Origin: a virus
IMG/VR virus record: IMGVR_UViG_3300025154_000061
Location: 1-64,000 of that record
Reading direction: 5' to 3' (one strand)
DNA length: 64,000 nt
The notes under the pieces were generated by a model. It saw only the letters and a list, made by a program, of their open reading frames with translations. It had not been told where the DNA came from and searched no databases. Positions within the stretch are counted from its first letter, which is position 1, and each line of letters starts with the position of its first letter. A program made the position numbers and the translations under genes. Shown in pieces: positions 27,364 to 54,615 of the stretch.

Positions 27364-29760
27364 ATGATACGAGCGACCCAAACCGACGCCCGCGTGACCC
27401 TCGATCGCTTCGCCGACGATCGCGACGAGGTCTATCGCCTGCTCGATCGGCGCTTCCGCTACAAGGTCGAGGGCTACGAATACGCCCCCGCCTACCAAGC
27501 TCACCGTTGGGATGGTTGGACGCACCTCGTCAAGAAGGCGAGCGGGGTCGCGCTCGTCGTTCCGCTCGGGATCTGGCCCGAGTGCGCCGAGGTGCTCGCC
27601 GAGAACGGGGTCGAGTTCGAGCACGTCGACGAGCGCCGCCCGGTCGCGCCGCTCGACGGCGACGTCGAGTGGGTCGGCCCGACGCTGCGCGACTACCAAC
27701 GCGAGGCCCGCGACGCCGCGATCGCCTCGGGCTCGGGGGTCTTGAAGCTCCCGACCCGCGCGGGGAAGACCTTGATCGCCGCCTCGATCGCGCACGCCCT
27801 ACGCCTGCGGTCGATCTTCGTCGTGCCTTCCGAAATGCTGCTACGTCAGACCGCCGCCGCGTTCGCGAAGGCCCTCTCGGGGCTGCGCGTCTCGACGATC
27901 GGCGACGGCGAGTGGGATAGTTCGGGCGACGTGGTCGTCGCGACGATTCAAACCTTGTCGGCCGTGATAGAGACGAGGCGCTTTCGCACGCTCTCGCGCT
28001 CGTTCGATATTGCTTTTATTGACGAATGCTTTCCGGCCGGGACGCTCGTTGACGGCGTCCCGATTGAGGCGATCCGTGAGGGCGATCTCGTGACAGCCTA
28101 CGATCCCGACTCGGGATCGTTCTCTTCGCGGCGTGTCGCACGCACGTTCAAGCGTCCGGCCCCCGGGGGGCTCGTGACGATCGCCACGACGGCCGGGACT
28201 GTCTCTTGCACGCCGAATCACCCGTTCTTCACCCGGCGTGGTTGGGCGGCCGCCGGGGTGCTTGACGTTGGCGAAATGGTGGCTTACGCTACCGGCCCGA
28301 CGGGGTTAGATGAAAGGGGCGGGGATGAAGCGCAAGGTGATTCAGGGGAAGTGCGTCGAGTGCGGCTCGCAGATCGAGATCGTGGGATACAATCGGTGTC
28401 ACCTTTACGAGACGACGGGCCGGGGGTACTGCTCGGAAGTCTGCAAAAAGACTTGGATGTCCCGCCGTTGGTCAGAAACGATGGCCCGCACGAATCGAGT
28501 TTACGCGTCGGCGAGGATGCGCAAGCACAACCCGATGCACGACCCCGAAGTGCGCGAGGCCGTGACTGCGAAAGCTCGGGCTCGTGGTTGGCCTGTCGGC
28601 GTGCCGCGAGGGGGGAACGGGCACGGGCCGACGAGCGCGCAATCGACGTTGGCACTCGCTCTTGGCTGGGCGATCGAAGTAGCTGTGCCGACGGGCAGGG
28701 GGGCTCGCGCGAAGGGATTCCCGCCTTGCTACAAGATCGACGTAGCGAATCCGGCCGCGAAGATAGCCGTCGAGATCGATGGATCGGGGCACACCTCGAC
28801 GCGCGTCAAGCTAGCCGACGAGCGCAAGGCCGCGTTCTTGCGTGGGCTCGGGTGGAAAGTATTACGATTCAAGAATCAGGAAGTGATATCGGATCTTCCG
28901 ACGGTGATTGCCTCGATTATGTCTACAATTTAGAAGTCGAGGGCGTGCATACATATACGGCGAATGGCTTTGTCGTGCATAATTGCCACCACCTCTCGGG
29001 GCAGGGCGACGCGTGGCGCGCCGCCGCGAATGCGATCGAGGCCCGGCACCGCTTCGGGCTGTCGGCAACGGTCGGGCTCGACCCCGTCGGCGAGAACGAT
29101 GCAACCGACGTTTGGCTTCGCGCCGTCTGCGGCCCGATCGTCTACGAGGTTGCGATCTCGACCTTGATCGAGGCGGGTTACCTCGTGCGGCCGACGATCC
29201 GCTTTTTGCGCCACGGGGCGCCCGATCTGCCTTACGACCGTTGGTCGACGCGCGCCTACGCCGACGGGATCTCGAAGTGCGAGAAGCGCAACGAGAGGAT
29301 CGTCGCCGAGGCTGCGCGCTACGCGGGGCGCGGGCTGCGCGTGCTCGTCGACGTCGCCCGCGTGGGGCACGCCCGAGCCCTCGCCAACGCCTGCGCAAAG
29401 GCCCTTCCGCCCGGCCGGGTCGCCCTACTGCTCGGCACCTCGTCGGGCGACGAGCGCGCGGCCGTCGTGGCGTCGTGGCGTCGTGGCGAAGTGCTCGTCG
29501 TGGTCGGGACGATCCTCGGCGAAGGCGTCGACATTCCCGAACTCTCGGTCGTGATCAACGCCGAGGGGGGCAAGGCGAACGTCTCGGGGCTTCAACGCCT
29601 GCGCAACCTGACGCTCTCGCCCGGTAAGACCGAGGCGATCGTCGTCGAGTTTCTCGACACGCATCACCCGCACCTCTGCGATTGGACGGCACGCCGCCTC
29701 GCGCTCTACAGGCGTGAACGCGCCTTCAAGATCGAGGCTGAACCGAAGGGGGCAACGTGA
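27364..29760 (+). CDS. superfamily 2 (DExH) helicase containing an intein
   Basis: LRDYQ, PTRAGKT, DE|intein|CHH, GLSAT, GEGVDIP motifs. Confidence 0.92.
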   Translation: MIRATQTDARVTLDRFADDRDEVYRLLDRRFRYKVEGYEYAPAYQAHRWDGWTHLVKKASGVALVVPLGIWPECAEVLAENGVEFEHVDERRPVAPLDGDVEWVGPTLRDYQREARDAAIASGSGVLKLPTRAGKTLIAASIAHALRLRSIFVVPSEMLLRQTAAAFAKALSGLRVSTIGDGEWDSSGDVVVATIQTLSAVIETRRFRTLSRSFDIAFIDECFPAGTLVDGVPIEAIREGDLVTAYDPDSGSFSSRRVARTFKRPAPGGLVTIATTAGTVSCTPNHPFFTRRGWAAAGVLDVGEMVAYATGPTGLDERGGDEAQGDSGEVRRVRLADRDRGIQSVSPLRDDGPGVLLGSLQKDLDVPPLVRNDGPHESSLRVGEDAQAQPDARPRSARGRDCESSGSWLACRRAARGERARADERAIDVGTRSWLGDRSSCADGQGGSREGIPALLQDRRSESGREDSRRDRWIGAHLDARQASRRAQGRVLAWARVESITIQESGSDIGSSDGDCLDYVYNLEVEGVHTYTANGFVVHNCHHLSGQGDAWRAAANAIEARHRFGLSATVGLDPVGENDATDVWLRAVCGPIVYEVAISTLIEAGYLVRPTIRFLRHGAPDLPYDRWSTRAYADGISKCEKRNERIVAEAARYAGRGLRVLVDVARVGHARALANACAKALPPGRVALLLGTSSGDERAAVVASWRRGEVLVVVGTILGEGVDIPELSVVINAEGGKANVSGLQRLRNLTLSPGKTEAIVVEFLDTHHPHLCDWTARRLALYRRERAFKIEAEPKGAT
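28262..28290 (+). promoter_or_regulatory. intein-internal sigma70-like promoter TTGACG-N17-TACGCT
   Basis: -35 at 28262-28267, -10 at 28285-28290, 35 nt upstream of nested ATG 28325. Confidence 0.7.
28325..28933 (+). CDS. nested DUF559/Vsr-like PD-(D/E)XK endonuclease with N-terminal Zn finger, in the +1 frame inside the intein
   Basis: CVECG..YCSEVC; HNPMHDPEVR; YKIDVA...IAVEIDGSGH...DERKAAFLRGLGWKVLRFKN; AGGGG RBS; alternative ATG at 28310. Confidence 0.88.
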   Translation: MKRKVIQGKCVECGSQIEIVGYNRCHLYETTGRGYCSEVCKKTWMSRRWSETMARTNRVYASARMRKHNPMHDPEVREAVTAKARARGWPVGVPRGGNGHGPTSAQSTLALALGWAIEVAVPTGRGARAKGFPPCYKIDVANPAAKIAVEIDGSGHTSTRVKLADERKAAFLRGLGWKVLRFKNQEVISDLPTVIASIMSTI

Positions 29761-30002
29761 AGAACCTTCTCGCTTGGTTGGGATTGAAGCCGAGGCCCGC
29801 GAACGGACACGCGACCAATCCTCGCGCGACGCTTCCGGGGGTGCCCGACGTAGATCCGGCGCTCGCGCACTTCCGCCGCGACGACTCGGGGCGCCGCCTC
29901 TGCGCCTGCGGGAACGTGGCGAAGGGCGGGCGGGCGCAGTGTGGGCCGTGCTCGCGCGGCGAGCGCTTCGTTCGCTTCGGGGGAGGCGAACCGAATTTCT
30001 AG
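29757..30002 (+). CDS. small Cys-containing hypothetical protein
   Basis: GTG overlapping the helicase stop; CACG...CGPC. Confidence 0.55.
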   Translation: MKNLLAWLGLKPRPANGHATNPRATLPGVPDVDPALAHFRRDDSGRRLCACGNVAKGGRAQCGPCSRGERFVRFGGGEPNF

Positions 30003-30016
30003 GCTCGGGGGATCCA

Positions 30017-30772
30017 ATGCCGACGCGGGAAGAGATCGTCGCGGGTATCGATCAAGCTCGGGGCCTTACGCCGCCCCTCGAAGTGCTGCGCGCGTGCCGC
30101 CGACTGACGCTGTCGGGGGTGTCGAGCGTTCCGGCGCTCGTTGACGGGCGTTGGTTCGCGGTCGTGTCGACGGCGACCTCGACGTTTGCAATGCCGATCG
30201 CCGGGTCGACCTCGCGCGTCGGCCGCCTCTACGACCGGATCTTCCCGGTCGGGACGCGCTCGGTGCTCTTCGGGGTTCACCATTGGGCGTTGCACCCCGT
30301 GCTCGTCGCGCTGGCGTGGCGCAAGCTCTACGGGGCATGGCCGACGCCTCGCGAGGCCGCCTGTATCTTCGTTCACGATCTCGGCTACCTCGGGAAGCGC
30401 ACGATCGACGGCGCCGACGGCAAGCGTCACCCGGTCGCCGGGGCGACGATCGCCGAGCGCCTCTTCGGCGCCGAGTGGGGGGCGCTCGTGCTCTTCCATT
30501 CGGGCGACTTCGCGAAGGCGAAGGGCGGCGCGATCTCGAAGCTCTACGCCCCCGACAAGCTCTCGTTCTCGCTCTACCCGCGCGCCCTCTATCTCGCCCT
30601 CGCCCGGTTGACGGGCGAGCTTCACGAGTATCGGGCGACGGCCGCGATCGCGGGGGTCGTCGACGAGCACCTTCCCGACGTCGTTTGGTTCGACGTGATC
30701 TCTGCGCGCATGGCGGCGAAGGCTTCAAGATCGGCCGCTGCGTTCAGGGCGGCAGGGGGCGACAGGGGTTGA
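30017..30772 (+). CDS. HD-domain-like phage protein
   Basis: GTRSVLFGVH..LHP, IFVHDLGY, HPVAGA, LFHS, PDKLS motifs. Confidence 0.7.
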   Translation: MPTREEIVAGIDQARGLTPPLEVLRACRRLTLSGVSSVPALVDGRWFAVVSTATSTFAMPIAGSTSRVGRLYDRIFPVGTRSVLFGVHHWALHPVLVALAWRKLYGAWPTPREAACIFVHDLGYLGKRTIDGADGKRHPVAGATIAERLFGAEWGALVLFHSGDFAKAKGGAISKLYAPDKLSFSLYPRALYLALARLTGELHEYRATAAIAGVVDEHLPDVVWFDVISARMAAKASRSAAAFRAAGGDRG

Positions 30773-30932
30773 CGATGCGCGTCGATCGCTGCTACCTTCG
30801 AGCCCGCCTTCCGTTTCCTTCCCATTCGCTCGGGGTCGGCCGGGAGATCGCGCGGGCTGCCTCTCGCGTGATCGCCCACGGGGGCCGACCCTCGCCACGA
30901 TTCGGCCGCACAACGTTACCGCAGGGCGCCGC

Positions 30933-31847
30933 ATGAAGCGCCCCGCCTTCTGCCCGCTCGACGCGCTGCGCGCCTACCTTGGCGCGATTGCGAGCGGGCT
31001 CGGGGGCGACGGGGCGATCGAGCAGATCGCGCGCGTGACGCAGTGTTCCCGGGCTGGCGTCTACCGCCTGCTCGACGATCTTCGCGGGGTGGGGCTCGTG
31101 AACGGCGATCGCCTCGTGCTCTTCGCAAAGGGGTTGACGGTTCATTCTCATGCGCCGGGCGAAGAGTGCGCGGGCGAGATCGTGCTGACGCTCGCCGAGT
31201 CGGCCGATATGCTCGCCTGCGCTGCCGCCGGGCCGCTGCCGTGCGCCAACCTTCCGCTTGCGCTGTTGCCCGAAGAGCGCGCCAAGCTCGCCGCCGAGCT
31301 TCGACAAGGGGCGGCCGAGATCTGCGTCGTGCGCGAGAGGCGCCGCGAGAAGATCACGCCCGACGACGAATACCTCTTTCGGCTCTACTCGGCCCGTCGC
31401 GTGCGGATCGACGTGGCGTGGTCGGGCGGTCGCTGCCCGAAGAAGATCGCCGACGCCCGGCGCCTGCTCGTGCGACACCACGTCGAGAAGCCGCAGTTCG
31501 CCGCCTATCTCGATTGGCTTTTCGAGAACTTCCCGAAGTGGTCGAAAGAGAAATTGCACTACCCGCCGATCGGGATCGTGGCGTCGCAGTCGGTGATCGA
31601 CTCGTTTGTCGCGACGCTCGGGGAACGCCCGTTGAACTGGCGACGCGCCGTCGAGATTCTCGCCGAGGGGGGCTTCGCCGACGTCAACGTCTTCGTCGCC
31701 CTCGACGTCGCCAAGATCGCTCGCGCCAAGAACCGCGACCCGCGCACGCTGCGCGGGCTCGACGGGCGCTACCCCGACGCGGTCGCCTACCTGCTCGAAC
31801 GCTACGCCGAGATCGGGATCCTACCCACCGAAGAGGCCGCCCTATGA
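30933..31847 (+). CDS. hypothetical protein with N-terminal wHTH-like segment (possible replication initiator/loader)
   Basis: IARVTQCSRAGVYRLLDDL helix-turn-helix-like; coupled to the DnaB gene. Confidence 0.5.
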   Translation: MKRPAFCPLDALRAYLGAIASGLGGDGAIEQIARVTQCSRAGVYRLLDDLRGVGLVNGDRLVLFAKGLTVHSHAPGEECAGEIVLTLAESADMLACAAAGPLPCANLPLALLPEERAKLAAELRQGAAEICVVRERRREKITPDDEYLFRLYSARRVRIDVAWSGGRCPKKIADARRLLVRHHVEKPQFAAYLDWLFENFPKWSKEKLHYPPIGIVASQSVIDSFVATLGERPLNWRRAVEILAEGGFADVNVFVALDVAKIARAKNRDPRTLRGLDGRYPDAVAYLLERYAEIGILPTEEAAL

Positions 31848-33169
31848 CCACGACGATCGACGTAGAGTTCGAGCGAGACGTTGTCGCCTCGTGCCTGCGC
31901 GACGAAGACTTCGTGCGCGCTGCGCTGCCTACGCTCTCGCGGCACAATTTCTCGTCGAAGCCCCTCGCGTTCCTGTGGGATGCGATCTCGACGAACTTCG
32001 TCGGCTCGCGCGAGCTTGTGACGCCGCGCCTGCTCTTCGCCAGGATCGATCGCGACTTCGCCCGCGAGGAAGAGCGCGACTTCATGCTCGACGTCGTGCG
32101 CGGGCTCTACGCCCGCAAGCCTGCCGCGCCGCGATCGTCGCTCGACCAGATCCGCGAGTTCGTGCGCCTGACCTCGGCCCGCGACACCGTCGGCGAGATC
32201 CTCGAAGGGCTTGACTCGGGGGATCTCGCGCGGGCCGAGGCCGCCATGATTGCCGGGATCGAGCGCGCGAGGAAGGTCGTCGACGACGACGAGCCCGTCG
32301 AGTGGGCGACGTCGGCCTCGGCCCGCCTCGATCGCTACCGCCGCGAGAAGTCGATCGCCTCGATCAAGACGCCGCTCGAATCGCTGAACCGCTTCCTCGG
32401 GGGCGGGATGCGCCCCGGGCACCTTGGCTTGATCGTGGCGACGACGAACGTCGGCAAGTCGTCGCTCGCGACTGACTTCGGCTACTGCGCCGCCTTCCAT
32501 TCCGACGCCGCCGTGATTCACCTCACGACCGAAGAGCCCGAATTCGAGCAGTCGGCCCGCTACGACAGCCGCTTCACGGGGATCGAGCGTTCGAAGTTCT
32601 TGCGGGGGGATCTGAGCGAGGCCGAAGAGATCTTCTACCTCGACCGCTTCAAGAGGCGCGAGGCCGAGATCAACCGGATCGCCGTGAAGGAAATCGGGAC
32701 CGGGGGAAGCGCCGTTGTCGTGCGCCTGCTCGCCGAGTGGGCGAGAAGGAAGCACCCGACGCGGCCCCTGCTCGTGATCGTCGACACGCCCGATCAATTG
32801 AAGATGCCGGGCAAGAGCGAGTCGAAGCGCCTCGACGCGACCGACGTCTATCTCGGGCTGCGTGGCATGGCGTTAGACAAGTCTTTAGCCCCGATCGCGG
32901 TGTGGGCAGTCACCCACGCCCCGGCCGCGTTCGAGGGGAAGAGCTTGACCCCGAAGGCCGTCAGCGAGTCTTACGACAAGGCGCGCTGTGCCTCGGTCAT
33001 GGTAGGCGCCGAGGAAAAGGGCGATCTGCCGTCGGGCAAGAAGACGATCGTCGTGCGAATCGTGAAGAACCGTCTCGGCCCCGTGAAGCATTACCGGATT
33101 TACACCGAGGCAGACTTCGGGATCTGCAAGTTCGAAGAGGTCGCGGGATGCGAGGAAGACGAGGAATAG
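31844..33169 (+). CDS. dnaB: DnaB-like replicative helicase
   Basis: Walker A ATTNVGKSS, LTTEE, VIVD, IVKNRLG; DnaB-like N-terminus. Confidence 0.85.
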   Translation: MTTTIDVEFERDVVASCLRDEDFVRAALPTLSRHNFSSKPLAFLWDAISTNFVGSRELVTPRLLFARIDRDFAREEERDFMLDVVRGLYARKPAAPRSSLDQIREFVRLTSARDTVGEILEGLDSGDLARAEAAMIAGIERARKVVDDDEPVEWATSASARLDRYRREKSIASIKTPLESLNRFLGGGMRPGHLGLIVATTNVGKSSLATDFGYCAAFHSDAAVIHLTTEEPEFEQSARYDSRFTGIERSKFLRGDLSEAEEIFYLDRFKRREAEINRIAVKEIGTGGSAVVVRLLAEWARRKHPTRPLLVIVDTPDQLKMPGKSESKRLDATDVYLGLRGMALDKSLAPIAVWAVTHAPAAFEGKSLTPKAVSESYDKARCASVMVGAEEKGDLPSGKKTIVVRIVKNRLGPVKHYRIYTEADFGICKFEEVAGCEEDEE

Positions 33170-34179
33170 CCCGCGCCTTCGACGTCGAGGGCTACGTCGA
33201 TCGCGAGATCGGGGTCGTCTCTCGCTCGACCGGGAAGCACGGCGCCGAGTTGATCTGCGTCTGCCCGTTCTGCGGGCGCCCGAAGCTCTACGTCAACGTC
33301 GAGTCGGGGCTTTGGGTCTGCTACCGCTGCGCGCCGAAGGGCGGCACCGTGATCGACCTCGTCGCCAAGACGCAGGGGATCCCGCGATCGCAGGCTCGCG
33401 AGATCGTCGCCGACCCGAAGAGCGCCCCGGGCGAGTCGCTCGAACGGATCGCCGAGCGGGCCGCCGCCTCGCTCGACGAAGAGGCCCGGCACGAGCGGCG
33501 GATCGACGCCCCGCGCGTCTCGCTCGACGTGGGGCTGCCCGACGAGTTCGTGCCGATCTTCGACGCCGCCTCGGGGACGTGGCGGATCCCCGACTACTGC
33601 CGCGAGAGGGGCATTCGCGGCCGCACCGCCCGCGCCTACGGCCTCGGCTATTGCACGGGCGGCCGCTACGGCGGGCGGTTGATCTTCCCGGCGCACGTCT
33701 TCGGCGAGACGGTCACGTTCCAAGGGCGGATCATGCGCCCGCTGGCAGACGACGAGCACGTTCCGAAGTATCTCGGCCCGTCGGTCGAGAAGAGCGTCGC
33801 CGTCTACGGGCTCGACGAGGCGATCGGGGTGCGCCGCGTGGCGCTCGTCGAGGGGCCGATTGACGTCGTGAAGCTCTATCAATTCGGCGTGCCTGCGGTC
33901 GCCCTTATGGGCAAGTCGGCGAGCATGGGGCAGGCGACCACGCTTTCGCGAGCGGGGTTCAGGTCGATCGACCTACTGCTTGACGCCGACGATCCGGGGA
34001 TAGAAGCTCGCGCCGACGCCGTCGCGGTCTTGGGTCTGACCTTCGACGTTAGACTTGCCTTTCTACCCTACGGGGTCGATCCGGGGTCTGCGACCCGCGA
34101 CCAAGTCGAAGACGCTCTCGCCCTCGCCCGTGCCCCGAAACTTAGCGAAACGATTGGCCGATCTAGAAAAGCGACGTGA
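33148..34179 (+). CDS. DNA primase (Zn finger + TOPRIM)
   Basis: CPFCG..CYRC, GRLIFP, FQGR, PKYL, VEGPIDV, LLDADDPG; start codon uncertain. Confidence 0.88.
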   Translation: MRGRRGIARAFDVEGYVDREIGVVSRSTGKHGAELICVCPFCGRPKLYVNVESGLWVCYRCAPKGGTVIDLVAKTQGIPRSQAREIVADPKSAPGESLERIAERAAASLDEEARHERRIDAPRVSLDVGLPDEFVPIFDAASGTWRIPDYCRERGIRGRTARAYGLGYCTGGRYGGRLIFPAHVFGETVTFQGRIMRPLADDEHVPKYLGPSVEKSVAVYGLDEAIGVRRVALVEGPIDVVKLYQFGVPAVALMGKSASMGQATTLSRAGFRSIDLLLDADDPGIEARADAVAVLGLTFDVRLAFLPYGVDPGSATRDQVEDALALARAPKLSETIGRSRKAT

Positions 34180-34184
34180 TCTTT

Positions 34185-34226
34185 TCAAAAAGTATTGACG
34201 TGCCTATCCTCCCCGACTATACCTGT
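34185..34226 (+). promoter_or_regulatory. duplicated promoter cassette copy 1 (TCAAAAAGTATTGAC-N11-CCCCGACTATACCTGT)
   Basis: Same flanks and spacing as 35285-35326; TTGACG-N17-TATACC. Confidence 0.75.
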
Positions 34227-34261
34227 AGTCGACCGCCACGACGGCGGGGAAGGGGCACCCA

Positions 34262-35194
34262 ATGACGACCGAACGACCGACGCTGCGATTCGGGGTTGCG
34301 ACCGTTGCAGTTCGTGACGACCTGACGCCTTACGACGAAGTCTTCGTTCCCGAGTGGGACGAGAATTTCCAAGTCGACGACCGGCTCTTCGAGACGCTCG
34401 CCGTCTGCGCCGCCGACGATATCCCCGCGCTGCTCGTCGGCCCGGCCGGGTGTGGCAAGACGCAGGGCGTCAGAATGATCGCCGCCCTTCTGAATCAGCC
34501 CGTGCGCAAGATCTCGCTGAACGCCGACGTGCGGTCGAGCGACTTCGTCGGGCAGAAGTCGATCGACGTCGACGAGGCGACGGGCACCTCGATCGTCACC
34601 TTCAAAGACGGGATCCTTCCCGACGCTATGCGGCGCGGTCATTGGTTGGTTCTCGACGAGTTCGACGCCACGCCCCCGGGGATCGCCTTCGTGCTGCAAA
34701 GCGTGCTCGAACCCGGTCACGTCTTGACGCTGCTCGACAACTACGGCGAAGTCGTGACCCCGCACCCGAGCTTCCGCCTCTTCGCCACGGGCAACACGAT
34801 CGGCAAGGGCGACGAGTCGGGACTCTACACCGGAACGAACGTCATGAACGAGGCGACGCTTGATCGCTTCGTCACGATCGAATGCACCTACGTTGTCCCG
34901 TCGGTCGAGTGCGAGATCCTGACCTCGAAGACGGGCGTCGCCGCGCAGATCGCGAAGCGCCTCGTCGACGTGGCGACGCTCGTTCGGCAGGGGTTCGACA
35001 AGAACGAGTGTTTCTGCACCTTCTCGACGCGCCGCCTGCTCGCGTGGGCTGCCTTCACGACCCGGTTCGGCGCCAACGACGCCGCCGTCGTGCGGGGCTA
35101 CAAGCTCGCGGTCGCCTCGAAGCTCGGCCGCGAGGATCGGCTCTACGTCGCCGGGGTCGTTCAGCGTGTGATCGGCCTCGACGTCGCTCGCTAA
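34262..35194 (+). CDS. MoxR/CobS/CbbQ-NirQ-type AAA+ ATPase
   Basis: GPAGCGKT, LVLDEFD, FRLFATGNT, NEATLDRF, FSTRRLLAW. Confidence 0.9.
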   Translation: MTTERPTLRFGVATVAVRDDLTPYDEVFVPEWDENFQVDDRLFETLAVCAADDIPALLVGPAGCGKTQGVRMIAALLNQPVRKISLNADVRSSDFVGQKSIDVDEATGTSIVTFKDGILPDAMRRGHWLVLDEFDATPPGIAFVLQSVLEPGHVLTLLDNYGEVVTPHPSFRLFATGNTIGKGDESGLYTGTNVMNEATLDRFVTIECTYVVPSVECEILTSKTGVAAQIAKRLVDVATLVRQGFDKNECFCTFSTRRLLAWAAFTTRFGANDAAVVRGYKLAVASKLGREDRLYVAGVVQRVIGLDVAR

Positions 35195-35284: not shown

Positions 35285-35326
35285 TCAAAAAGTATTGACC
35301 CGTTGCGGCGCCCCGACTATACCTGT
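35285..35326 (+). promoter_or_regulatory. duplicated promoter cassette copy 2
   Basis: TCAAAAAGTATTGACC...CCCCGACTATACCTGT upstream of the vWA gene. Confidence 0.75.
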
Positions 35327-35359
35327 GGGCGAGGGCACGACGCCCGAGGGGTTGACGAA

Positions 35360-37645
<2,286 letters not shown>

Positions 37646-45461: not shown

Positions 45462-45496
45462 AACCTTCAACCCGGGAACTTGATCGAGGTCTTTCA

Positions 45497-46633: not shown

Positions 46634-47439
46634 CGCTACCGCACGACAAGCCCAAGAAGCCCGCGAAGCGCAAGCGCCCGGCCCGGCCCGAGGTCTTCGC
46701 GCGGTCTGCGGGGATCACCGCGCCGCGCCGCGATTGGGAAGCCGTGGGGCTAGACGTGTCTATCAATCACGCCGGGGCGGTCAAGCTCGACGGCGTCGAC
46801 GGGGAGCTTCTCGACTTCGCGTTCTTGACGCCCCTCGTCGGGCTCGCGAAGTCGAGCCGCTCGTTCGGCACGCGGATCCCCGCGTTCAAGCAGGCCGACG
46901 TCGAGCGGCACCAATCCGAGATCGACCGCCTGCGTTGGTTGCGCGAGTGGTTCGGCCGCCTCGCCGACCGCCTCTTCCCGCTCGACGGGGTCGACTACTT
47001 CGTCGCGATCGAAGACTACGCTCTCGACGCCGCCCGGGGGGCTCACCAAATGGGCGAGGTCGGGGGAGCGCTGCGGTTGGCGTTGTTCGACTTCGCCGCC
47101 CGGCACCCCGGCCGCTCGATCAACCTGCGCTTTTGGGAACCGGGTTCAGTCAAGATCTTCGCGACCGGCAACGGCAACGCCGAGAAGGAACTCGTCGGCG
47201 AGTGCGCTCGCGCCAAGTGGCGCACCGCGCCGCTATTCGGCGACGACGACGTCGACGGGGATCTCGCCGACGCGCACACCCTCGCCCGCATGGTTTGGCG
47301 CGAGTGCCGCGTTCGCCTCGGTCGCGACGCGCTCGCCGACCTGCCCGACGAAGAGCGCCGGATCTTCCTGCGCACCACGAAGAGCGAGCCCGTCGCGGTA
47401 TGCGACAGGCCGTTCGCGAGCTACCATGCCCCCGCGTAA
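46630..47439 (+). CDS. RuvC-like Holliday junction resolvase
   Basis: VGLDVS, VAIEDYA, GEVGG, VKIFATGNGNAEK, DLADA. Confidence 0.85.
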   Translation: MTLPHDKPKKPAKRKRPARPEVFARSAGITAPRRDWEAVGLDVSINHAGAVKLDGVDGELLDFAFLTPLVGLAKSSRSFGTRIPAFKQADVERHQSEIDRLRWLREWFGRLADRLFPLDGVDYFVAIEDYALDAARGAHQMGEVGGALRLALFDFAARHPGRSINLRFWEPGSVKIFATGNGNAEKELVGECARAKWRTAPLFGDDDVDGDLADAHTLARMVWRECRVRLGRDALADLPDEERRIFLRTTKSEPVAVCDRPFASYHAPA

Positions 47440-48295
47440 CCTTCGAGAACTCGGCGCCGAGTGGGCGACGTGCGCGCGTTGCCCGTTGCACGAGCGGCGC
47501 TCGTGCGTGATCGTGGGGGCTGCGGTCAAGAACGCGCCGACCGTCGACGATCCCCTTCTGCTCGTGATCGGCGAGGCGCCCGGCAGCGAGGAAGACGCCG
47601 AGGGCGTGCCGTTCGCCGGGAAGGCCGCCCGGGTCTTGCACGACGAGATCTTCGCGGGGGCTGGCGTTAGGCTTGCCTATGTCTCGAACTGCGTCGGCTG
47701 TCGCCCGCCCGGCAACCGCACCCCGGCACGCGCCGAGATCGAGGCGTGCGCGCCGCGTGTCGCTGCGTTGATCGAACTCACCGCGCCCGACGCGATCGTC
47801 GTGGTCGGCCCGGTCGCCGAGGAAGCCCTCGCCTCGGGGGTGTGGGGCGAGGGGGCCTCGACGCTGCCTTCCTGCGCGATCCTTCACCCGGCGACCCTTC
47901 TACACCGGGGGCACCCGACCGACGCAACGCGCCGGGCTTTGCGCGCCGAGGTCGCCAAGATCTCGCGCCTGCTCGTGCGCCTCGGGGCGAAGAGGCCCGC
48001 CAAAGCCGAGCCCGTGCCCGAGGTCGCCGAGGTCGTCGCGCCCGAGTGCGCGCACGTCGGGGTTCCGCTCGGTCGGCTCGTCGCTCGCGACGGCCGCGAG
48101 GCGCCCCTCGTAGTTTGTCGCGAGTGCGGCGTCGCCCTCTCGGATCCCAAGGCGGCAGGATTGACGCCAAGGCGTTCCGGCCGTCGAGGGGATACGACGT
48201 CAGGGGGCGCGCGCTCGAAACGCGCCACAATCGATCCTCGTGCGTCAGGCGACGAACGGGAGGGGGTAGACGATGCGACTCGCAACGATCGGTGA
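47426..48295 (+). CDS. uracil-DNA glycosylase family 4
   Basis: CARCPL, IGEAPG, GVPFAG, CRPPGNRTP, LHPA. Confidence 0.9.
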   Translation: MPPRNLRELGAEWATCARCPLHERRSCVIVGAAVKNAPTVDDPLLLVIGEAPGSEEDAEGVPFAGKAARVLHDEIFAGAGVRLAYVSNCVGCRPPGNRTPARAEIEACAPRVAALIELTAPDAIVVVGPVAEEALASGVWGEGASTLPSCAILHPATLLHRGHPTDATRRALRAEVAKISRLLVRLGAKRPAKAEPVPEVAEVVAPECAHVGVPLGRLVARDGREAPLVVCRECGVALSDPKAAGLTPRRSGRRGDTTSGGARSKRATIDPRASGDEREGVDDATRNDR

Positions 48296-49523
48296 TCTTC
48301 ACGTCGTCGACGGTGAACTCGACACGCAAGGCCCCGTGCTCGACGAGATCGCCGCAGGGGTCGAAGAGGCCCGGCCCGATCTCGTGCTCGTCGTGGGCGA
48401 TCTGTCGGGACACCGCGTCCCGCACAAGGCGACGCCCCGCGAGCGAAACGCGCTCGTCGGCTTCTTCGCGAAGCTGGCGCAGTGTGCGCCCGTCGTGATC
48501 GTGCGGGGGAATCACGACTACCCGCGCGATTGGGAGTTCCTGAACGCGATCGGCGGGCATTCGTTCTACTCGATCGGGTTCGTCGACGAGCCTTCGACGC
48601 TGACCGCTGGCAAGGCGGGGGCGCTCGCGCTCGTCGCGTGCTTCCCGTGGGTCGACCGTTCCCGGTTCGGTCCCGACGTCGACTACGGCGAGGCCGTGCG
48701 CACGCTCTACGACGCCGTCGTCGACGAGGCGCGCTCGACGATCGCCACGCTGCCCGACGACGAGTTGCCGAACGCCGTGGTCGCCCTCGGTCACTGCGCG
48801 ATCGCCGGGGGCATGATCGGGATCTTCGGTCAACCGTCGGTCCCGACCGCCGATCCCGTGGTCGCGATCGACGACGTCTGCCCGAGCGACGTCTTCGACG
48901 CGGGGTTCTTCGGGCACTACCACGCGCCGCAGGAACTACCCCGAGAGGGCGAGAGCGGGGGCGCCGCGTGCCGCTACGTGGGAAGCGCTTTCGTGTCGCA
49001 GCACGGCGAAGCGACCGCGAAGTCGTGGGGCGTGGTCGATATCTCGGGCGAGGGCAAGGCCCGAGCGCGAGAGATCCCGATCCCGCAGGCCCCGCGCGTG
49101 CTCTTGCGCGTCGACGGCGTCGCCCGTCGCATCGTCGAGATCGTGCCCGCCGCCCTTGTCGGGCTCTCGGCCGGGACGTTGATCGACGAGTGCAAGCCGA
49201 TCGCCTTACCTCGGGGCGCGCCGAGCGCGAGCGTGAAGGTGCGGATCGAGGGGGCGATCTCGATCACCGAGGCGGCCCGCGCGTTCGATGAGATCGCCGC
49301 GTTGGTCGCCCCGGCTGCGCACTCGATCAAGCGCGAGTTCGCGATCGAGCGCGTCGCCCGTGCTCGCGAGGGCGCCGACGAGATCGCCAAGGCGACGACG
49401 ACGGCCGACAAGCTCGCGCGCTACCTCGACACGATCAACCCCGCGCCGAGAGGCGTGATCCGCAAGCGGGCGATCGCGTTGCTGGCCGAAATCGAAGCGA
49501 CGCTCGACGCCCCGATCGCGTAG
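48273..49523 (+). CDS. sbcD: SbcD/Mre11-like nuclease
   Basis: GDLH, GDL, GNHD, GHYH metallophosphoesterase motifs. Confidence 0.9.
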   Translation: MRLATIGDLHVVDGELDTQGPVLDEIAAGVEEARPDLVLVVGDLSGHRVPHKATPRERNALVGFFAKLAQCAPVVIVRGNHDYPRDWEFLNAIGGHSFYSIGFVDEPSTLTAGKAGALALVACFPWVDRSRFGPDVDYGEAVRTLYDAVVDEARSTIATLPDDELPNAVVALGHCAIAGGMIGIFGQPSVPTADPVVAIDDVCPSDVFDAGFFGHYHAPQELPREGESGGAACRYVGSAFVSQHGEATAKSWGVVDISGEGKARAREIPIPQAPRVLLRVDGVARRIVEIVPAALVGLSAGTLIDECKPIALPRGAPSASVKVRIEGAISITEAARAFDEIAALVAPAAHSIKREFAIERVARAREGADEIAKATTTADKLARYLDTINPAPRGVIRKRAIALLAEIEATLDAPIA

Positions 49524-49524
49524 T
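49497..49524 (+). promoter_or_regulatory. GCGACG-N16-CGTAGT motif
   Basis: Recurring motif upstream of ATG 49557. Confidence 0.6.
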
Positions 49525-49556
49525 TCGGGCGAGGCGCGCACACCACGGGGGCGATC

Positions 49557-49895
49557 ATGACGACCGACGGCAAGCTCGACGTCACCAAGTCGACGAAGAA
49601 GCGGGGCGATCTCGCCCCGGGCGCAGCGAGTGAGGCCGTGCCGGTCCCCTCGGGGCTGGCGCCTTCGGCGCACGAGCCCGAACATAGGTTCGCGCGGATC
49701 CGCGTGAACAAGGGGGCGACGATCAACATTGGCCGAATGGAGTTCCTTCGCTGCGACGTCGCGGTCGAACTCCCGTGCAAGCCCGATCTCGCCTCGCTCG
49801 ACCGGGCGATCGATATCGCCGATACGATCGCGAACGACCGCCTCGTCGCTGAGATCGAGAACGCCCGCAAGCAGTCGGGCGGGGGCGACAAGTGA
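49557..49895 (+). CDS. hypothetical phage protein
   Basis: RBS; GATINIGRMEFLRCDV motif. Confidence 0.65.
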   Translation: MTTDGKLDVTKSTKKRGDLAPGAASEAVPVPSGLAPSAHEPEHRFARIRVNKGATINIGRMEFLRCDVAVELPCKPDLASLDRAIDIADTIANDRLVAEIENARKQSGGGDK

Positions 49896-51718
49896 AGACC
49901 TACCCCTCGCTCTTGCGCGCCGCGAAGATCGAAATGCACGGGGCCTTTCAGCCCCGCAAGATCGACGGGCTCTTCTCGGCCGACGACGTCGAGAAGATGC
50001 GCCAAGGCGGCCGCGACGCGGGCCGCCCCTCGGGGTGGGATCCCGCGCGCTACGAGCCGATCAAGGTGTGGAACCCCGACAGCAACGACGCGACCTGCCC
50101 GGCCGCGCTGCGCGATCGCTTCGCCGAGTGGTTCGTGATCAAGGGCTTTCACCGCCTCGCGCTGGCGAGGGCGTGCGGGATCGAGTCGCTCGACGTGATC
50201 GTCTGCGCGGGCTCGTTCGACGAGGCGGTCGCCGCGAGCAAGCGCTCGAACTTCGAGACGCGCGCGCTTCACCCGATCGACGAAGCCGCCGTCTATCGCG
50301 ATCGCCTTGAAGCGGGCGACACGCCCGAGCAGATCTCGCGCGACCTCGACCGCCGCGCGCCCGCCTACTACCGCAAGCGGGCCGCCGTCGCCTACCTGTC
50401 GCCCTCGTTGATCGCCGACGTGCGCTCGGGGCTTCTGCGCCTCGACTACGCCGAGCACGTCGGCCGCGCCGCGCAAGTCGGGGCGAGCCCGGCCGCGCAG
50501 GTCGCGATCGCCTCGGTCGCTGCCCGAACTTCCATGCGCGCCGAGCTTTTCGGGCGTTACGTCGACAAGGTGATCGCCGCAATTGCCGCCGCGAAACCGG
50601 GCGAAGACGTGGTCGACGTCGCCGCCCGCGAGGGGAAGACGCTTGATCTCTTCCCGCCGACGTTCGACGCGGGGGTCGCTGCCGTCGAGTCGATCACGAT
50701 CGGCGAGGCTCGACGCGAGAGCGTGCGCGACGGGTGGGCGTCGATCGGGCACGCCGCCCGAGCGCAGTTGAAGCGCCTCGAAACCGAGGGGGTTCCGCCC
50801 CCGCCCGCCCTTGGAAGGTTGATCGCCATGATCGATAAGCAGCGCGCAGGGGAAGACAGGGCGGTCGCCGCGAGCGTCGGGGCAACCGACACGCGCGAAG
50901 CGCTGCCGTTGATCAAGTGGGTCGGGTCGAAGCGCACCGAGGCCCCGACGCTCGCCGCGATCATTCGCGCACGCCTGCGGCCCGGCGCCGAATACTTCGA
51001 GCCCTTCTTCGGATCGGGCTCGGTCTTCTTCGCCGTCGCCCCCGAAACCGCCGTGATCGGCGACGTGCTCGAACCCGTGGTAAACCTTTACAAGTCGACC
51101 CGAGACGACCCCCGCGCGGTCTTCGCCGCCATGCGGGCGATCGTCGAGAAGGGGCTCGACAAGGCGTCGTTCCTCGCCGCCCGTGACGCCGACCCGCCCG
51201 CCGATCGCTTCGAGCGCGCGGGGTGGTTTCTCTACCTGAACCGCACGGGGTTCAACGGGCTGTGGCGCACGAACAAGTCGGGCAAGCTGAACGCCCCCTT
51301 CGGCACGCCGAAGACCGTCGCCGCCTTCCCGACGCTCGATCGCTTCGAGCGCTGCGCCGAGATTCTCTCGGGCGCCGTGCTCTACTGCGGCGACTACTCG
51401 AAGGGCGTCGCCCGCGCCAAGGCTGGCGACGTGGTCTTCGCCGACCCGCCCTACCCCGGCACGTTCAGCGACTACGCCAAGCGCACGGGGCCGATCGACT
51501 ACGCCAAGCTCGCCGCCGACCTGCGCGCCGCGCACGATCGGGGGGCGCACGTCGTGACGACCCTCGCCGCGAGCGAAGACCTCGACGCGCTCTTCTCGCC
51601 TTGGTGCTACCGCGTCGACCTTTCGCGCACCTCGAACGTCTCTTGCAAGGCGTCGACGAGGGGCGAGTTCAAGCAGGTCGTTTGGTGCTCGCACGAGCGA
51701 GAGGGGGCCGCCGAATGA
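49892..51718 (+). CDS. ParB-like domain fused to Dam-family DNA adenine methyltransferase
   Basis: N-terminal FQPR, PIKVW, IKGFHRL; C-terminal IKWVGSK, EPFFGSGSV, LNRTGFNGL, DPPY. Confidence 0.85.
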   Translation: MKTYPSLLRAAKIEMHGAFQPRKIDGLFSADDVEKMRQGGRDAGRPSGWDPARYEPIKVWNPDSNDATCPAALRDRFAEWFVIKGFHRLALARACGIESLDVIVCAGSFDEAVAASKRSNFETRALHPIDEAAVYRDRLEAGDTPEQISRDLDRRAPAYYRKRAAVAYLSPSLIADVRSGLLRLDYAEHVGRAAQVGASPAAQVAIASVAARTSMRAELFGRYVDKVIAAIAAAKPGEDVVDVAAREGKTLDLFPPTFDAGVAAVESITIGEARRESVRDGWASIGHAARAQLKRLETEGVPPPPALGRLIAMIDKQRAGEDRAVAASVGATDTREALPLIKWVGSKRTEAPTLAAIIRARLRPGAEYFEPFFGSGSVFFAVAPETAVIGDVLEPVVNLYKSTRDDPRAVFAAMRAIVEKGLDKASFLAARDADPPADRFERAGWFLYLNRTGFNGLWRTNKSGKLNAPFGTPKTVAAFPTLDRFERCAEILSGAVLYCGDYSKGVARAKAGDVVFADPPYPGTFSDYAKRTGPIDYAKLAADLRAAHDRGAHVVTTLAASEDLDALFSPWCYRVDLSRTSNVSCKASTRGEFKQVVWCSHEREGAAE

Positions 51719-54615
51719 AGATCGAACGCGTGCGCCTCGACGGGATCACCCGCTACCGCAGGCCGATCGAACTCGCGCTTCCCGAGGGGGTCGTCGCGAT
51801 CGTCGGGCCGAACGGGTGCCTACAGGGCGACGTAGAGATTTACGATCCAACGGACGGATCGTCCGTCGCCGTTCGCGATCGTTACAATCGGGGCGTGCCG
51901 TTTCACGTATGGGCGTTAGGGCCGCATGGGGTCGTAACGACGGCCGCAATGCCCCCTTGCAAGTATCCGCCCGCTCAAATGCTGCGATTGCGGTTCGCGG
52001 ACGGGAAGTCGATTACGGTGACTCCGGCGCACAAGTTTTGGAGCGGCGCCGAGTGGTTGACAGCTTCCGCCATTTTTCAAGCCCTGCGAGAGAACGGGCG
52101 CGTCCGGCTGCCGTCCAGTTCGGCCGCTTACCTGTCAACTCATGCCGAAGATGATCTGCGTTGGTGCGAAATAATTCCAGATTCTCCGGGCGGTTGTCGG
52201 CGTGTTCCCCGTTGCGATGATGCACGACTTCTTCCGGCAGAAGTCGGCGCCCGAGAATCCGTTCCATTACGAGGCGATGCTCCCGAACTAGCCCTTTGCG
52301 ATCTGCGTCGGGGTGATACGGAAGCCGTAGAAGAATGTAGCCGTCGGCGTCAATCACCCGACCGCCGCGCCACGACCCATTGCGAGCGCCCGGCGCTCCC
52401 CGGTCACGAATCGCTCCTCCGACGTTGCGGATTGCCTTCGCGATCCGGCTTTGATTCGAGTGCATTGACCGGGCGATCTCCGCGAGACTCGCCCCGCTCT
52501 CGTAGCGTGCAAGAGCTTCGCGCCTCCGCTCATCCGTCCAATTCTGACGCATCGACGCCCCCCGGGGTTATGGTTCCTTTCGAAACATACCCCGCGATTG
52601 ACCCGTCGACAATCGAAATTGTCGCGGTTGGCGAGCTACCGTGCGAGCCTTACTACGACTTCCACGTCCCGGTTCACCTAAACTATTGGGCCGCCGGGGT
52701 CTGGAATCACAACTCCGGCAAGACGACGCTTCTCGAATGCCTCGGCCCGGCCGTCTTCTTCCGCGAGTTGCCGACCCGCGAGCCCTCGGGAATCCAGAAT
52801 TGGATCGGGCCGAAGGGCGGCCGGATCGAACTCGACTTCGTGCGGGGCTCGCGCCGCTACGAAGCGATCGTCGAGATCGACGGGTCGGGCAGGCAAGCCG
52901 CGTTCCTGACGTGCGACGGGGTCAAGCTCGCGTCGGGCAAGGTGCGCGACTACGACGTCGAGATCGCGAAGGTGGTCGGCAACCGCGACGCCTTCTACGC
53001 CTCGGTCTTCGGGATGCAGGGCGGGGGCGGGCGCTTCGAGTCGCTCGAAGTCACCGACCGCAAGGCGATCTTTCGCTACTACCTCGGGCTCGACCGGGTC
53101 GACAAGGCGCACCGCGCCGCCCGCGCCCGCCTCGAAGCGCTCGACGTCTCGAAGATCGCCACGCTGCGCGCCGATCTCGAAGCCTGCGAGACGGCGATCG
53201 CCGAGGCCGAGGCCGACGTCAAGGCTGCGGTCTTCGCGGCCGACGCCGAGCGCGAGGTAAGTCGCAAGGCGCGCGCCAAGCTCGACGACCTGCTCGCGCT
53301 CTCGTCGACGGCCGAACTCGTCGACGCCTACGACACCGCTCTCGACGCGGCGGGCGAGGCGCAAGACGCGCTCACCGCCCTACCTGCCCGCCCGGCCGCC
53401 GCGCCTGCGCCGACGGGCGACAAGGGCGCCGCTACGATCGCCTTAGAGGCCGCGAGGAAGAAGAACGAGGGCTACCTCGTCAAGAGCGCCGAGATCGCCC
53501 GCGTCGGCTCTTCGCTGGCGACGGCGAACGCCGACCTCGTGCGGGCGAACAAGGCGACCGAGCGTCTCGCGCGCGTGCCGTGCAAGGGCGAGGGCGCCTT
53601 CGCCGGGTGCGAGTTGCTGCGCGACGCGATCGCCGCGCGCGAATCGATCGCTGCGCTGCGCGACGTGTGCGCCAAGGCCGAGCAGGCGCACGAGACGTTG
53701 AAGGTCGAGGTCGCCGCGCTCGTCGTGCCCCGCGAGAAGCTCGACGCACTGCGCGCCAAGGTCGCCGAGGCCGAGCGGGAACTTGAAGCGCACCGCCTCG
53801 GGGCCGAGCGCTGCCGCGCCTACGACGAGAAGCGCGATCGACTGAACCGTGCGCTCGCTGACGCGAAGAGGCAGGCCGCCGCGCTGCGTGCCCGGCTGCC
53901 GAAGGTGATCGACGACGTGCCGTCGCTGGCGCAGATCGACGCCGCTCGCGAGGCGAGCGCCGCCGCGAGTGCCGCCTACGAGAAGGCGATCCGCGAGCAC
54001 GAGGCGGGCGTCGCTGCGTTCGGCGGCGCCCTCGATCGCAAGGCCGGGATCGAGAAGGCCCTCGCCGCCGAGGAAGCTCGCGCCGCCGACGCGCCCGCGC
54101 TCGAACTGCTCGCCCGCGCTCTCGGGGCGAACGGGATCCAAGCCTACGAGATCGACGCCGCAGGCCCCCGCGTCTCGGCCCTCGCGAACTCGCTCTTGCA
54201 TGCCTGCTACGGGCCGCGCTTCGACGTCGAGGTGCGCACGACGAAGGCGTTGAAGAGTGGCAAGGGCGAGAAGGAAGACTTCGACGTCGTCGTCTACGAC
54301 AACGACAGCGGGATCGAGAACACGATCGCCGGGCTGTCGGGGGGCGAGAAGGTGATCGTCGACGAGGCGCTTCGGCTGTCGCTCGTGATCTTCGCCGACG
54401 AGCGCCTCTCGGTTCCGTTCCGGGTGCTCTACCGCGACGAGACGATCGGCGGGCTCACCCGGGACAACCGCGCCGCCTATGCGCGAATGCTTCACCGCGC
54501 CCGCGATCTCGGCGACTTCGGGCAGATCTTCCAAGTGACCCACGACGAAGAGTCGAGCGAGAGCGCCGATGTCGTGATCGCGATCGACGAGTCGGGCAAT
54601 GTCTCGGTCGCATGA
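51715..54615 (+). CDS. sbcC: SbcC/Rad50 ATPase containing an intein
   Basis: GPNG|intein|SGKTT, coiled coils, LSGGEK, YRDE, VTH. Confidence 0.92.
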   Translation: MKIERVRLDGITRYRRPIELALPEGVVAIVGPNGCLQGDVEIYDPTDGSSVAVRDRYNRGVPFHVWALGPHGVVTTAAMPPCKYPPAQMLRLRFADGKSITVTPAHKFWSGAEWLTASAIFQALRENGRVRLPSSSAAYLSTHAEDDLRWCEIIPDSPGGCRRVPRCDDARLLPAEVGARESVPLRGDAPELALCDLRRGDTEAVEECSRRRQSPDRRATTHCERPALPGHESLLRRCGLPSRSGFDSSALTGRSPRDSPRSRSVQELRASAHPSNSDASTPPGVMVPFETYPAIDPSTIEIVAVGELPCEPYYDFHVPVHLNYWAAGVWNHNSGKTTLLECLGPAVFFRELPTREPSGIQNWIGPKGGRIELDFVRGSRRYEAIVEIDGSGRQAAFLTCDGVKLASGKVRDYDVEIAKVVGNRDAFYASVFGMQGGGGRFESLEVTDRKAIFRYYLGLDRVDKAHRAARARLEALDVSKIATLRADLEACETAIAEAEADVKAAVFAADAEREVSRKARAKLDDLLALSSTAELVDAYDTALDAAGEAQDALTALPARPAAAPAPTGDKGAATIALEAARKKNEGYLVKSAEIARVGSSLATANADLVRANKATERLARVPCKGEGAFAGCELLRDAIAARESIAALRDVCAKAEQAHETLKVEVAALVVPREKLDALRAKVAEAERELEAHRLGAERCRAYDEKRDRLNRALADAKRQAAALRARLPKVIDDVPSLAQIDAAREASAAASAAYEKAIREHEAGVAAFGGALDRKAGIEKALAAEEARAADAPALELLARALGANGIQAYEIDAAGPRVSALANSLLHACYGPRFDVEVRTTKALKSGKGEKEDFDVVVYDNDSGIENTIAGLSGGEKVIVDEALRLSLVIFADERLSVPFRVLYRDETIGGLTRDNRAAYARMLHRARDLGDFGQIFQVTHDEESSESADVVIAIDESGNVSVA
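52013..52552 (-). CDS. nested antisense HTH + HNH endonuclease inside the SbcC intein
   Basis: YESGASLAEIAR (HTH), NGSWRGGR..DGY, EHRLVME..LGR.L...EVVHHRNG..DNRPENLEL; GGGGGG RBS 5 nt before ATG. Confidence 0.9.
   Translation of the reverse strand: MRQNWTDERRREALARYESGASLAEIARSMHSNQSRIAKAIRNVGGAIRDRGAPGARNGSWRGGRVIDADGYILLRLPYHPDADRKGLVREHRLVMERILGRRLLPEEVVHHRNGEHADNRPENLELFRTNADHLRHELTGKRPNWTAAGRARSLAGLEKWRKLSTTRRRSKTCAPESP
52584..52612 (-). promoter_or_regulatory. intein-internal antisense promoter TTGTCG-N17-TATGTT
   Basis: -35 at 52612-52607, -10 at 52589-52584, about 30 nt upstream of HNH ATG 52552. Confidence 0.65.

Follow-up and report, generated by a model that had tools for sequence, protein, structure and literature searches.

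The 64,000-nt stretch of viral DNA analyzed here (the window) is the first 64 kb of the 92,259-bp IMG/VR record IMGVR_UViG_3300025154_000061 and has a GC content of ~68%. The public sequencing runs that contain it are metagenomes from groundwater and soil. A genome-wide search with the Pfam intein model returned exactly two matches, one in a gene encoding a superfamily-2 DNA helicase and the other in a gene encoding an SbcC/Rad50-like ATPase. We consider it very probable that each of these loci is a composite selfish element, in which a class-1 intein is paired with a homing-endonuclease gene that is translated on its own and overprinted on the dispensable middle of the intein. The anatomy of the loci supports this reading, as do splicing and catalytic residues that are all intact, an intein frame kept open by selection, a nuclease frame under purifying selection, and recent horizontal transfer among related Vibrio phages. 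The architecture itself is already known. What is new is the two combinations of nuclease, orientation, and host gene, together with the large, phase-locked, selected, and apparently mobile families to which they belong. Coordinates are collected in Table 1.

Table 1. Features of the two intein loci in the window (slashes mark intein junctions; aa, amino acids)
Feature	Position	Strand	Description
Superfamily-2 DNA helicase precursor gene	27364-29760	+	798 aa; ~479 aa post-splicing; Pfam ResIII, DEAD, Helicase_C
Intein 1, class-1 type, 319 aa	28027-28983	+	In helicase motif II, DE/C...HN/CHH
Intein 1 splicing regions	~28027-28311 and ~28822-28983	+	Flank stop-free "shadow" linker, ~28312-28821
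Promoter-like site TTGACG-17-TACGCT	28262-28290	+	8/12 consensus matches, weak
GGGG run	28302-28305	+	Upstream of nested +1 ATG
Nested homing-endonuclease gene, 207 aa	28310-28933	+, +1 frame	Vsr/DUF559 (EDxHD-type)
Dual-coded core	28850-28876	+	Nuclease GWKVLRFKN overprinted on intein VESIxIQE
SbcC/Rad50-like ATPase precursor gene	51715-54615	+	966 aa; ~667 aa post-splicing
Intein 2, class-1 type, 299 aa	51817-52713	+	In Walker A P-loop, GPNG/C...HN/SGKT
Intein 2 folded parts	~51817-52101 and ~52594-52713	+	Flank disordered linker, ~52102-52593
Nested homing-endonuclease gene, 179 aa	52013-52552	-	Helix-turn-helix-like N-terminus and HNH_3 nuclease
GGGGGG run	52563-52558	-	Upstream of antisense ATG
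Promoter-like site TTGTCG-17-TATGTT	52612-52584	-	8/12 matches, weak; in intein C-terminal coding region

The insertion in the helicase gene has the features of an intact intein. The helicase exteins matched PHROG 16 ("DNA helicase") at profile positions 243 to 384 and 385 to 621, and since they abut between positions 384 and 385, the insertion of intein 1 is clean. Intein 1 scored 38.7 to 41 bits against Pfam Intein_splicing (PF14890), above the cut-off of 35.8, and it carries the class-1 residues C1, TPNH in block B, and a C-terminal HN followed by a +1 Cys. In an alignment of 12 family members, C1, H65 of block B, H318, and N319 were invariant or near-invariant. No stop codon interrupts the intein frame at either locus, and both inteins are unsplit.

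The middle of intein 1 reads as protein in a different frame. Between residues ~96 and 265, the amino acids R, S, G, P, D, E, and A account for 74% of the intein-frame composition; across the central intein-frame segments of both loci the corresponding range is 68 to 74%, with 16 to 19% hydrophobic residues. Over positions 28285 to 28870, the signal from GC content at third codon positions (GC3) moves from the helicase frame into the +1 frame. The nested +1 gene matched Pfam DUF559 at 46.3 bits (E = 4e-12; cut-off, 20.6), and its product consists of an N-terminal CxxC zinc-ribbon-like part followed by a Vsr/DUF559 (EDxHD-type) nuclease domain. A family profile made from the nested +1 open reading frame (ORF) and ten relatives matched PDB entry 3hrl (E = 3e-12) and I-Bth0305I (3r3p; E = 0.002). 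Similarly, an AlphaFold model of the nuclease, with a predicted local distance difference test score (pLDDT) of 84.5, had 3r3p, 3hrl, and 1vsr (Escherichia coli Vsr) as its top Foldseek matches. D144, E155, D157, H161, and D170 are among the invariant residues in an alignment of 11 sequences and may, by analogy, be assigned to the EDxHD motif. The nested gene overlaps the C-terminal splicing region of intein 1 over ~110 nt (~28822 to 28933). Within this overlap, two alignments place an invariant nuclease motif on top of a conserved stretch of the intein C-terminal region, forming the dual-coded core of Table 1. This core was the sole part of the +1 gene to match Vibrio phage CP-T1 by blastn, and a blastn search of both host genes against GenBank phages returned only this short stretch, in CP-T1-like phages.

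The SbcC-like locus has the same overall plan, with the nested gene on the opposite strand. The true start of the SbcC-like ORF is at 51715. Its C-extein matched PHROG 77 ("SbcC-like subunit of palindrome specific endonuclease") at E = 4.5e-36, and the Pfam SMC_N match of the protein was sub-threshold. Intein 2 has the class-1 residues C1, TPAH in block B, and HN followed by Ser, and C1, H72, H298, and N299 were invariant in five relatives. Because Pfam support was weak (14 to 16 bits), we folded intein 2 with AlphaFold together with four relatives. Residues 1 to 95 and 260 to 299 were modeled as beta structure with a pLDDT of ~80 to 89, and residues 96 to 259 fell below 50. The 28 Foldseek matches of the model at E ≤ 0.001 were to intein or intein-like (Hint) splicing domains, the best being the Mtu RecA mini-intein (2in0; E = 6e-7). 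The antisense gene scored 33.1 bits against Pfam HNH_3 (PF13392; cut-off, 24.8) and matched PHROG HNH families down to E = 7e-27, and H111, H112, N114, and N124 were invariant in the family alignment. Its final ~30 codons overlap residues 66 to 95 of intein 2, and the DNA upstream of it lies within the C-terminal coding part of the intein. The C-extein (52714 to 54615) begins at position 332 of the 967 positions in the PHROG 77 profile, yet the N-extein is 34 aa long. This suggests that the profile holds ~300 insert columns at the P-loop site and that other phage SbcC-like proteins may carry inteins there.

A first-pass annotation, made from the letters of the sequence alone, had placed two unsplit inteins at these coordinates and had described their middles as the R/S/G/P-rich shadows of complete +1 DUF559/Vsr-like and antisense HNH genes. 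Splicing residues, the abutment on PHROG 16, and the Hint fold bear out the coordinates and splicing anatomy, while composition, GC3, and the Pfam matches agree with the description of the middles. A different view of this anatomy is that both insertions are tolerated surface loops that the host protein simply reads through without splicing. Such insertions are known: the ShiLan domain of phage DNA methylases is a stop-free insertion that conceals an HNH endonuclease gene in another frame (Arsenault et al. 2025; PMC11855218), and there, as here, the host frame stays open across the overlapping HNH gene. We nevertheless regard non-splicing loops as very unlikely, since both insertions split a catalytic Walker A or Walker B motif. 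In P-loop ATPases, a 300-aa loop within either motif would prevent ATP from being bound or hydrolyzed. The splicing residues are all conserved as well, as is the Hint fold. ShiLan is without a splicing domain and has its nuclease on the same strand, whereas here a complete Hint domain flanks an antisense nuclease gene.

To gauge how often an intein frame would stay open over such a gene, we permuted synonymous codons within each nested gene, keeping the protein and its codon usage, and counted intein-frame stops over 5,000 trials. The Vsr-type gene of the window has 0 intein-frame stops against a shuffle mean of 5.1, with 0.08% of shuffles (0.0008) being stop-free; for the HNH gene, 0 stops compare with a mean of 3.3, and 1.2% of shuffles (0.012) were stop-free. 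Across the families, 5 to 18 intein-frame stops were expected in Vsr-type genes and 2.7 to 11.7 in HNH genes, and none was observed. Stop-free shuffles numbered 0 of 5,000 in all relatives with 29 to 51% GC, and their frequency was 0.017 in a relative with 66% GC. Among these, Vsr-type homologues on nine distinct IMG/VR contigs (29 to 50% GC) all lie in the +1 frame of a contiguous ORF of 769 to 1,439 aa with intein blocks, each with 0 of 5,000 stop-free shuffles. As a negative control, five free-standing HNH relatives were tested, and these had 3 to 8 stops in the same phase.

At 68% GC, we had initially expected the open intein frames to be a GC artefact, an explanation that the shuffle tests ruled out. 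Overlapping ORFs of more than 150 aa are indeed numerous in the window, and one antisense ORF of 757 aa lies opposite a real gene, so both the open intein frames and the nested ORFs might be put down to chance in a genome of this composition. The shuffle tests contradict this, the layout is kept at 29 to 35% GC, at which 200-codon frames do not stay open by chance, and both nested ORFs match domains above curated thresholds. We therefore give coincidence a negligible probability. The first-pass annotation had noted that no stop crosses either intein frame, and the shuffles add that this openness exceeds chance.

Both nested genes belong to large families. At least 256 Vsr-type relatives were found in IMG/VR, and the best 68 distinct loci were classified. 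These range from 30 to 67% GC; in 66 the nuclease gene lies in the +1 frame inside a contiguous intein, in 2 it is free-standing, and in none is the intein split. From these counts, the contiguous arrangement appears to be the stable, common state in the Vsr family rather than an obvious transient. For the HNH gene, 238 relatives were found, of which the 26 closest distinct loci and 44 more distant ones were classified. All of the closest 26 are antisense, in a single codon phase, in P-loop inteins, while the 44 more distant relatives are without a long antisense host frame. The insertion sites are equally regular. The Vsr-type element always lies just past the Walker-B DE, either directly or, in SNF2 hosts, after DExH(K), and its hosts are ResIII helicases, SNF2 helicases, and a terminase. 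The HNH element always lies before the S/T-GK-S/T of Walker A, in terminases, a helicase, and, in the window, the SbcC-like ATPase. Thus, the suggestion in the first-pass annotation that the architecture is a recurrent class is upheld in both families. Its further suggestion, that the arrangement may be a precursor of split inteins, is a hypothesis already published by Dassa et al. (2009; PMC2677866), and our survey, with 66 contiguous loci and 0 split ones, does not support it.

We also considered whether the genetic code could impose these phases. In the sense phase seen, none of the 400 dipeptides makes a stop in the host frame unavoidable, versus 5 in the other phase. However, the antisense phase seen is not the most permissive one, with 5 forced dipeptides against 0 for the codon-on-codon phase. 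Shared ancestry therefore accounts for the phase-lock better than a constraint of the code does. We see about equal grounds for accepting and for doubting a broader reading, in which there would be two large phase-locked overprinted families, one with +1 Vsr/EDxHD-type genes in Walker-B (DE/C) inteins and the other with antisense HNH_3 genes in Walker-A (G/SGKT) inteins. Under it, the overlap would be a stable and actively homing state, distinct from an in-frame fusion or a split intein, and both families would hop between unrelated ATPases (helicases, terminases, and SbcC) by recognizing DNA that encodes nucleotide-binding motifs.

Variants of these elements were seen in several contigs. In one (L014:2560-3456) and in a second (L015), a member of the Vsr/DUF559 nuclease family is in frame as a canonical endonuclease domain of a UvrD-type helicase intein, so overlapping and in-frame forms of one nuclease lineage both exist. 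Another contig (L016:2578-3003) has a 142-aa mini-intein at the DE/C...HN/CHH helicase site; in its +1 frame only the last ~38 residues of the nuclease, corresponding to the dual-coded stretch, remain. To judge from its sequence, this mini-intein looks like an endonuclease-deleted descendant. A jumbo-phage helicase on a 313-kb contig (L007:1536-4433) holds two inteins, a Walker A mini-intein (ATG/C...HN/SGKTE) and a DE/C intein bearing a +1 Vsr-type gene.

The in-frame copies raise the question of whether sequencing or assembly frameshifts have displaced a Vsr-type domain that is truly in frame, making intein 1 a canonical bifunctional intein. We compared independent contigs at the helicase locus. 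Across the two intein 1 junctions and the greater part of the nested gene, the window is identical, with no indels, to a 41-kb contig (depth, 74) from the probable source sample and to low-depth contigs from three other groundwater/soil samples. An assembly artefact had been named in the first-pass annotation as a possible refutation, and this comparison gives no sign of one at the helicase locus. Moreover, 66 of 68 independent loci share the +1 phase, as do finished genomes of cultured phages, and a frameshift is inapplicable to the antisense HNH gene. We consider such an artefact hardly credible. An Rfam scan over the whole window found no family and so gave no sign of an intron enclosing the nuclease genes.

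We then asked which of the two frames is conserved. In BLAST comparisons of the central region, the nuclease frame was matched in 90 of 90 pairs with a median of 79 bits, compared to 27 bits for the intein frame. Within the nested ORF of Vibrio phages K391 and 1.088.O, there are 35 synonymous and 6 nonsynonymous differences in the nuclease frame and 5 and 36, respectively, in the intein frame; three other Vibrio phage pairs agree with this pattern. The HNH family offered one usable pair, with 45 synonymous and 38 nonsynonymous differences in the nuclease frame and 20 and 63 in the intein frame. Two further HNH pairs (L126/L127 and L133/L134) are only directionally consistent and are too diverged for counts of single substitutions. 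A per-frame comparison of selection had been proposed in the first-pass annotation, and run on these relatives, it points to purifying selection on the nuclease frame.

The same Vibrio phages carry a record of mobility. Between pairs, inteins have diverged by 4 to 6% and helicase exteins by 20 to 23% (Fisher P = 8e-29 to 8e-44). When K391, 1.088.O, and 1.194.O (L200, L201, and L202) are aligned, with the intein at 759 to 1826, identity is ~70 to 83% in the exteins and 90 to 99% in the intein, with sharp boundaries. Low intein divergence combined with high extein divergence is the signature of recent horizontal transfer among these Vibrio phages. In the window itself, intein GC is 56 to 65% against a genome background of 68 to 70%, which suggests a fairly recent arrival.

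Cultured phages carry both layouts. By tblastn, 40 GenBank phage records carry the Vsr-type gene: 37 are from Vibrio phages, 2 from Corynebacterium phages, and 1 from a Pseudomonas phage. Among the 30 matches listed of these 40, the host feature is annotated only as a helicase, P-loop NTPase, coil containing protein, or hypothetical protein, and the nested gene is annotated under none of the 30. In Vibrio phage CP-T1, gp10 (993 aa; L196, JQ177061.1 6842-9823) contains a 353-aa intein with an unannotated +1 ORF of 249 aa, which has 0 intein-frame stops against 10.7 expected and 0 of 5,000 stop-free shuffles. Pectobacterium phage Koroua (L197, PQ008972.1 2451-4715) has an antisense HNH gene inside an unannotated P-loop intein; the terminase-like gene that bears it adjoins the portal gene and is labeled "hypothetical protein." The nested gene is unannotated in CP-T1 gp10, in Koroua CDS0009, and in five other Vibrio phage records. 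The existence of cultured carriers indicates that viable phages tolerate both layouts, in helicase and terminase genes.

We can outline how such an element might work, and the mechanism proposed in the first-pass annotation appears to be essentially right. The host gene would be translated straight through the element, with the intein frame held stop-free, and the Hint halves would fold around a disordered linker of ~165 aa. The intein would then excise itself, and splicing would rejoin the DECHH of helicase motif II or the GPNGSGKT of the SbcC Walker A loop. The nuclease would be made independently: for the +1 Vsr/EDxHD-type gene, ribosomes might initiate within the helicase mRNA or a weak promoter inside the element might drive expression, and the HNH gene would need an antisense transcript. 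Each nuclease would be expected to cut the same nucleotide-binding motif in co-infecting phages whose allele has no intein, and recombinational repair could copy the intein and nuclease jointly into the cut allele.

Independent initiation of the Vsr-type gene is favored by the position of the conserved CxxC N-terminus, which starts within 5 to 15 residues of the ATG. G-runs lie 4 to 5 nt upstream of both nested ATGs, and AGGAG-type ribosome-binding sites precede the nested gene in several relatives. Since the Vsr-type gene is on the same strand as the helicase and has only a weak promoter-like site upstream, ribosomes could conceivably reach it through a programmed +1 frameshift, which would fuse the nuclease to the helicase N-extein and the N-terminal half of the intein. 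However, every family member has its own ATG with the conserved CxxC domain a few residues on, several have AGGAG-type sites, no conserved slippery site was noticed in the family, and the fusion would leave the helicase unspliced. Frameshifting thus seems quite improbable to us as the route to the nuclease, and we retain separate translation of the nested gene.

Several points weigh against composite, active elements in this particular phage. The stop-free statistic of the window's own HNH locus is modest (P ~ 0.012), and the SbcC intein scores under the Pfam intein cut-off. The evidence for selection and homing comes from relatives whose nucleases are 35 to 52% identical to the window's copies. 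The identical metagenome contigs at the helicase locus contain neither polymorphism nor an intein-less allele, and when viral contigs were searched with the helicase C-extein, no close relative turned up, hence no intein-less allele in a near relative. The first-pass annotation had credited each nested gene with a sigma70-like promoter and a G-rich ribosome-binding site of its own. The promoter-like sites and the G-runs are present; the promoters are weak and not above background, since a consensus promoter scan reports none in either intein and the window has roughly one site of 8/12 quality for every 1.6 kb of strand. Lastly, splicing, expression, the cleavage target, and activity are what we infer for the two copies of this phage.

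These points leave room for the two copies to be relics, such that the family is real and the inteins splice and are vertically inherited, with the nested nucleases of this phage unexpressed or inactive and not yet decayed. A homing cycle predicts such a phase, and a mini-intein with a remnant of the overlap (L016) exists; the lack of a strong promoter and of any intein-less allele or polymorphism in the metagenome contigs would also fit. On the other hand, both ORFs are full length with all family-invariant catalytic residues present, the nested Vsr-type protein folds confidently, and the lower GC of the inteins suggests that they arrived fairly recently. We consider relics unlikely and favor the reading of both loci as composite elements with separately translated nucleases.

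The first-pass annotation had taken the architecture to be undescribed, which is not the case. Gorbalenya (1998), as cited in later work, noted a contiguous intein with an antisense LAGLIDADG gene in cyanobacterial DnaX, and the out-of-frame endonuclease of a cyanobacterial dnaX intein has been analyzed for selection in both frames by Phillips et al. (2026; bioRxiv 10.64898/2026.09.14.751524). Like our loci, the DnaX intein is unsplit and contains a separately read, overlapping endonuclease ORF; it differs in its LAGLIDADG nuclease, cellular host gene, and insertion site. Gosselin, Arsenault and Gogarten (2025; bioRxiv 10.1101/2025.01.02.630785) reported actinophage inteins with antisense LAGLIDADG, antisense VSR-like, frame-3 endonuclease-VII-like, and in-frame HNH endonucleases, in genes for DNA polymerase, minor capsid protein, terminase, and thymidylate synthase. 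They propose invasion of the intein by a free-standing endonuclease, along with extein switching at nucleotide-binding sites. An origin in which a free-standing endonuclease gene invaded an intein is put forward across all three reports, for Gorbalenya (1998) as cited later. The non-canonical actinophage inteins resemble ours in being contiguous, with intact splicing blocks, phage hosts, and an endonuclease ORF that overlaps the center in another frame or strand. Our loci instead have a same-strand +1 Vsr-like gene at motif II of a helicase and an antisense HNH_3 gene at the Walker A motif of an SbcC-like protein, combinations that are not among the four types listed for the actinophages; the carrier is an uncultured groundwater phage, and the relatives span 29 to 70% GC.

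Two other known systems share parts of this layout. In fractured genes, a Vsr-like or GIY-YIG gene lies between split-intein halves, and the 3' end of the endonuclease overlaps the intein C-part by 6 to 69 bp (Dassa et al. 2009). The Vsr-like family, phage DNA-metabolism hosts, and overlap of the nuclease 3' end with the intein C-part (here ~110 nt) are common to both, but a fractured host gene consists of two separate ORFs and its intein works in trans, whereas the intein frame here is uninterrupted. I-Bth0305I, the EDxHD homing-endonuclease prototype (Taylor et al. 2011; PMC3239194; PDB 3R3P), has a Vsr-like catalytic fold and conserved E/D/H/D residues like those of the +1 nuclease, for whose model it is the top structural match. 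It differs in residing in a group I intron of recA rather than an intein, and it is distant in sequence (E = 0.002). Our literature searches turned up neither a same-strand +1 Vsr-like gene nor an antisense HNH gene in an unsplit intein.

Unsplit inteins with overlapping endonuclease genes are a common state that selection maintains in phages of widely differing base composition, and not an oddity of a few actinophages. The nested genes are routinely missed by annotation, and surveys for in-frame endonuclease domains would misclassify such elements as mini-inteins with "junk" linkers. In these elements, stretches of 90 to 600 nt are naturally subject to selection in two frames at once. Tractable systems for studying expression of an overprinted or antisense homing nuclease and intein homing are available in cultured carriers such as CP-T1 and the Nahant Vibrio phages.

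Two further observations concern the surroundings of these loci. The upstream neighbor of the SbcC-like gene (49892 to 51718, + strand) encodes a 608-aa protein with a C-terminal D12-class N6-adenine DNA methyltransferase domain, and the end of this upstream gene overlaps the start of the SbcC-like gene by 4 nt. Between the two loci, the ORF at 35303 to 37645 (+ strand) includes ~900 nt (35900 to 36800) that are nearly T-free, with an AT skew of 0.75 to 1.0. This T-poor stretch encodes the repetitive, acidic D/E/G/K/S/T linker of a CobT-like protein whose C-terminal vWA domain matched CobT_C at E = 1.4e-23.

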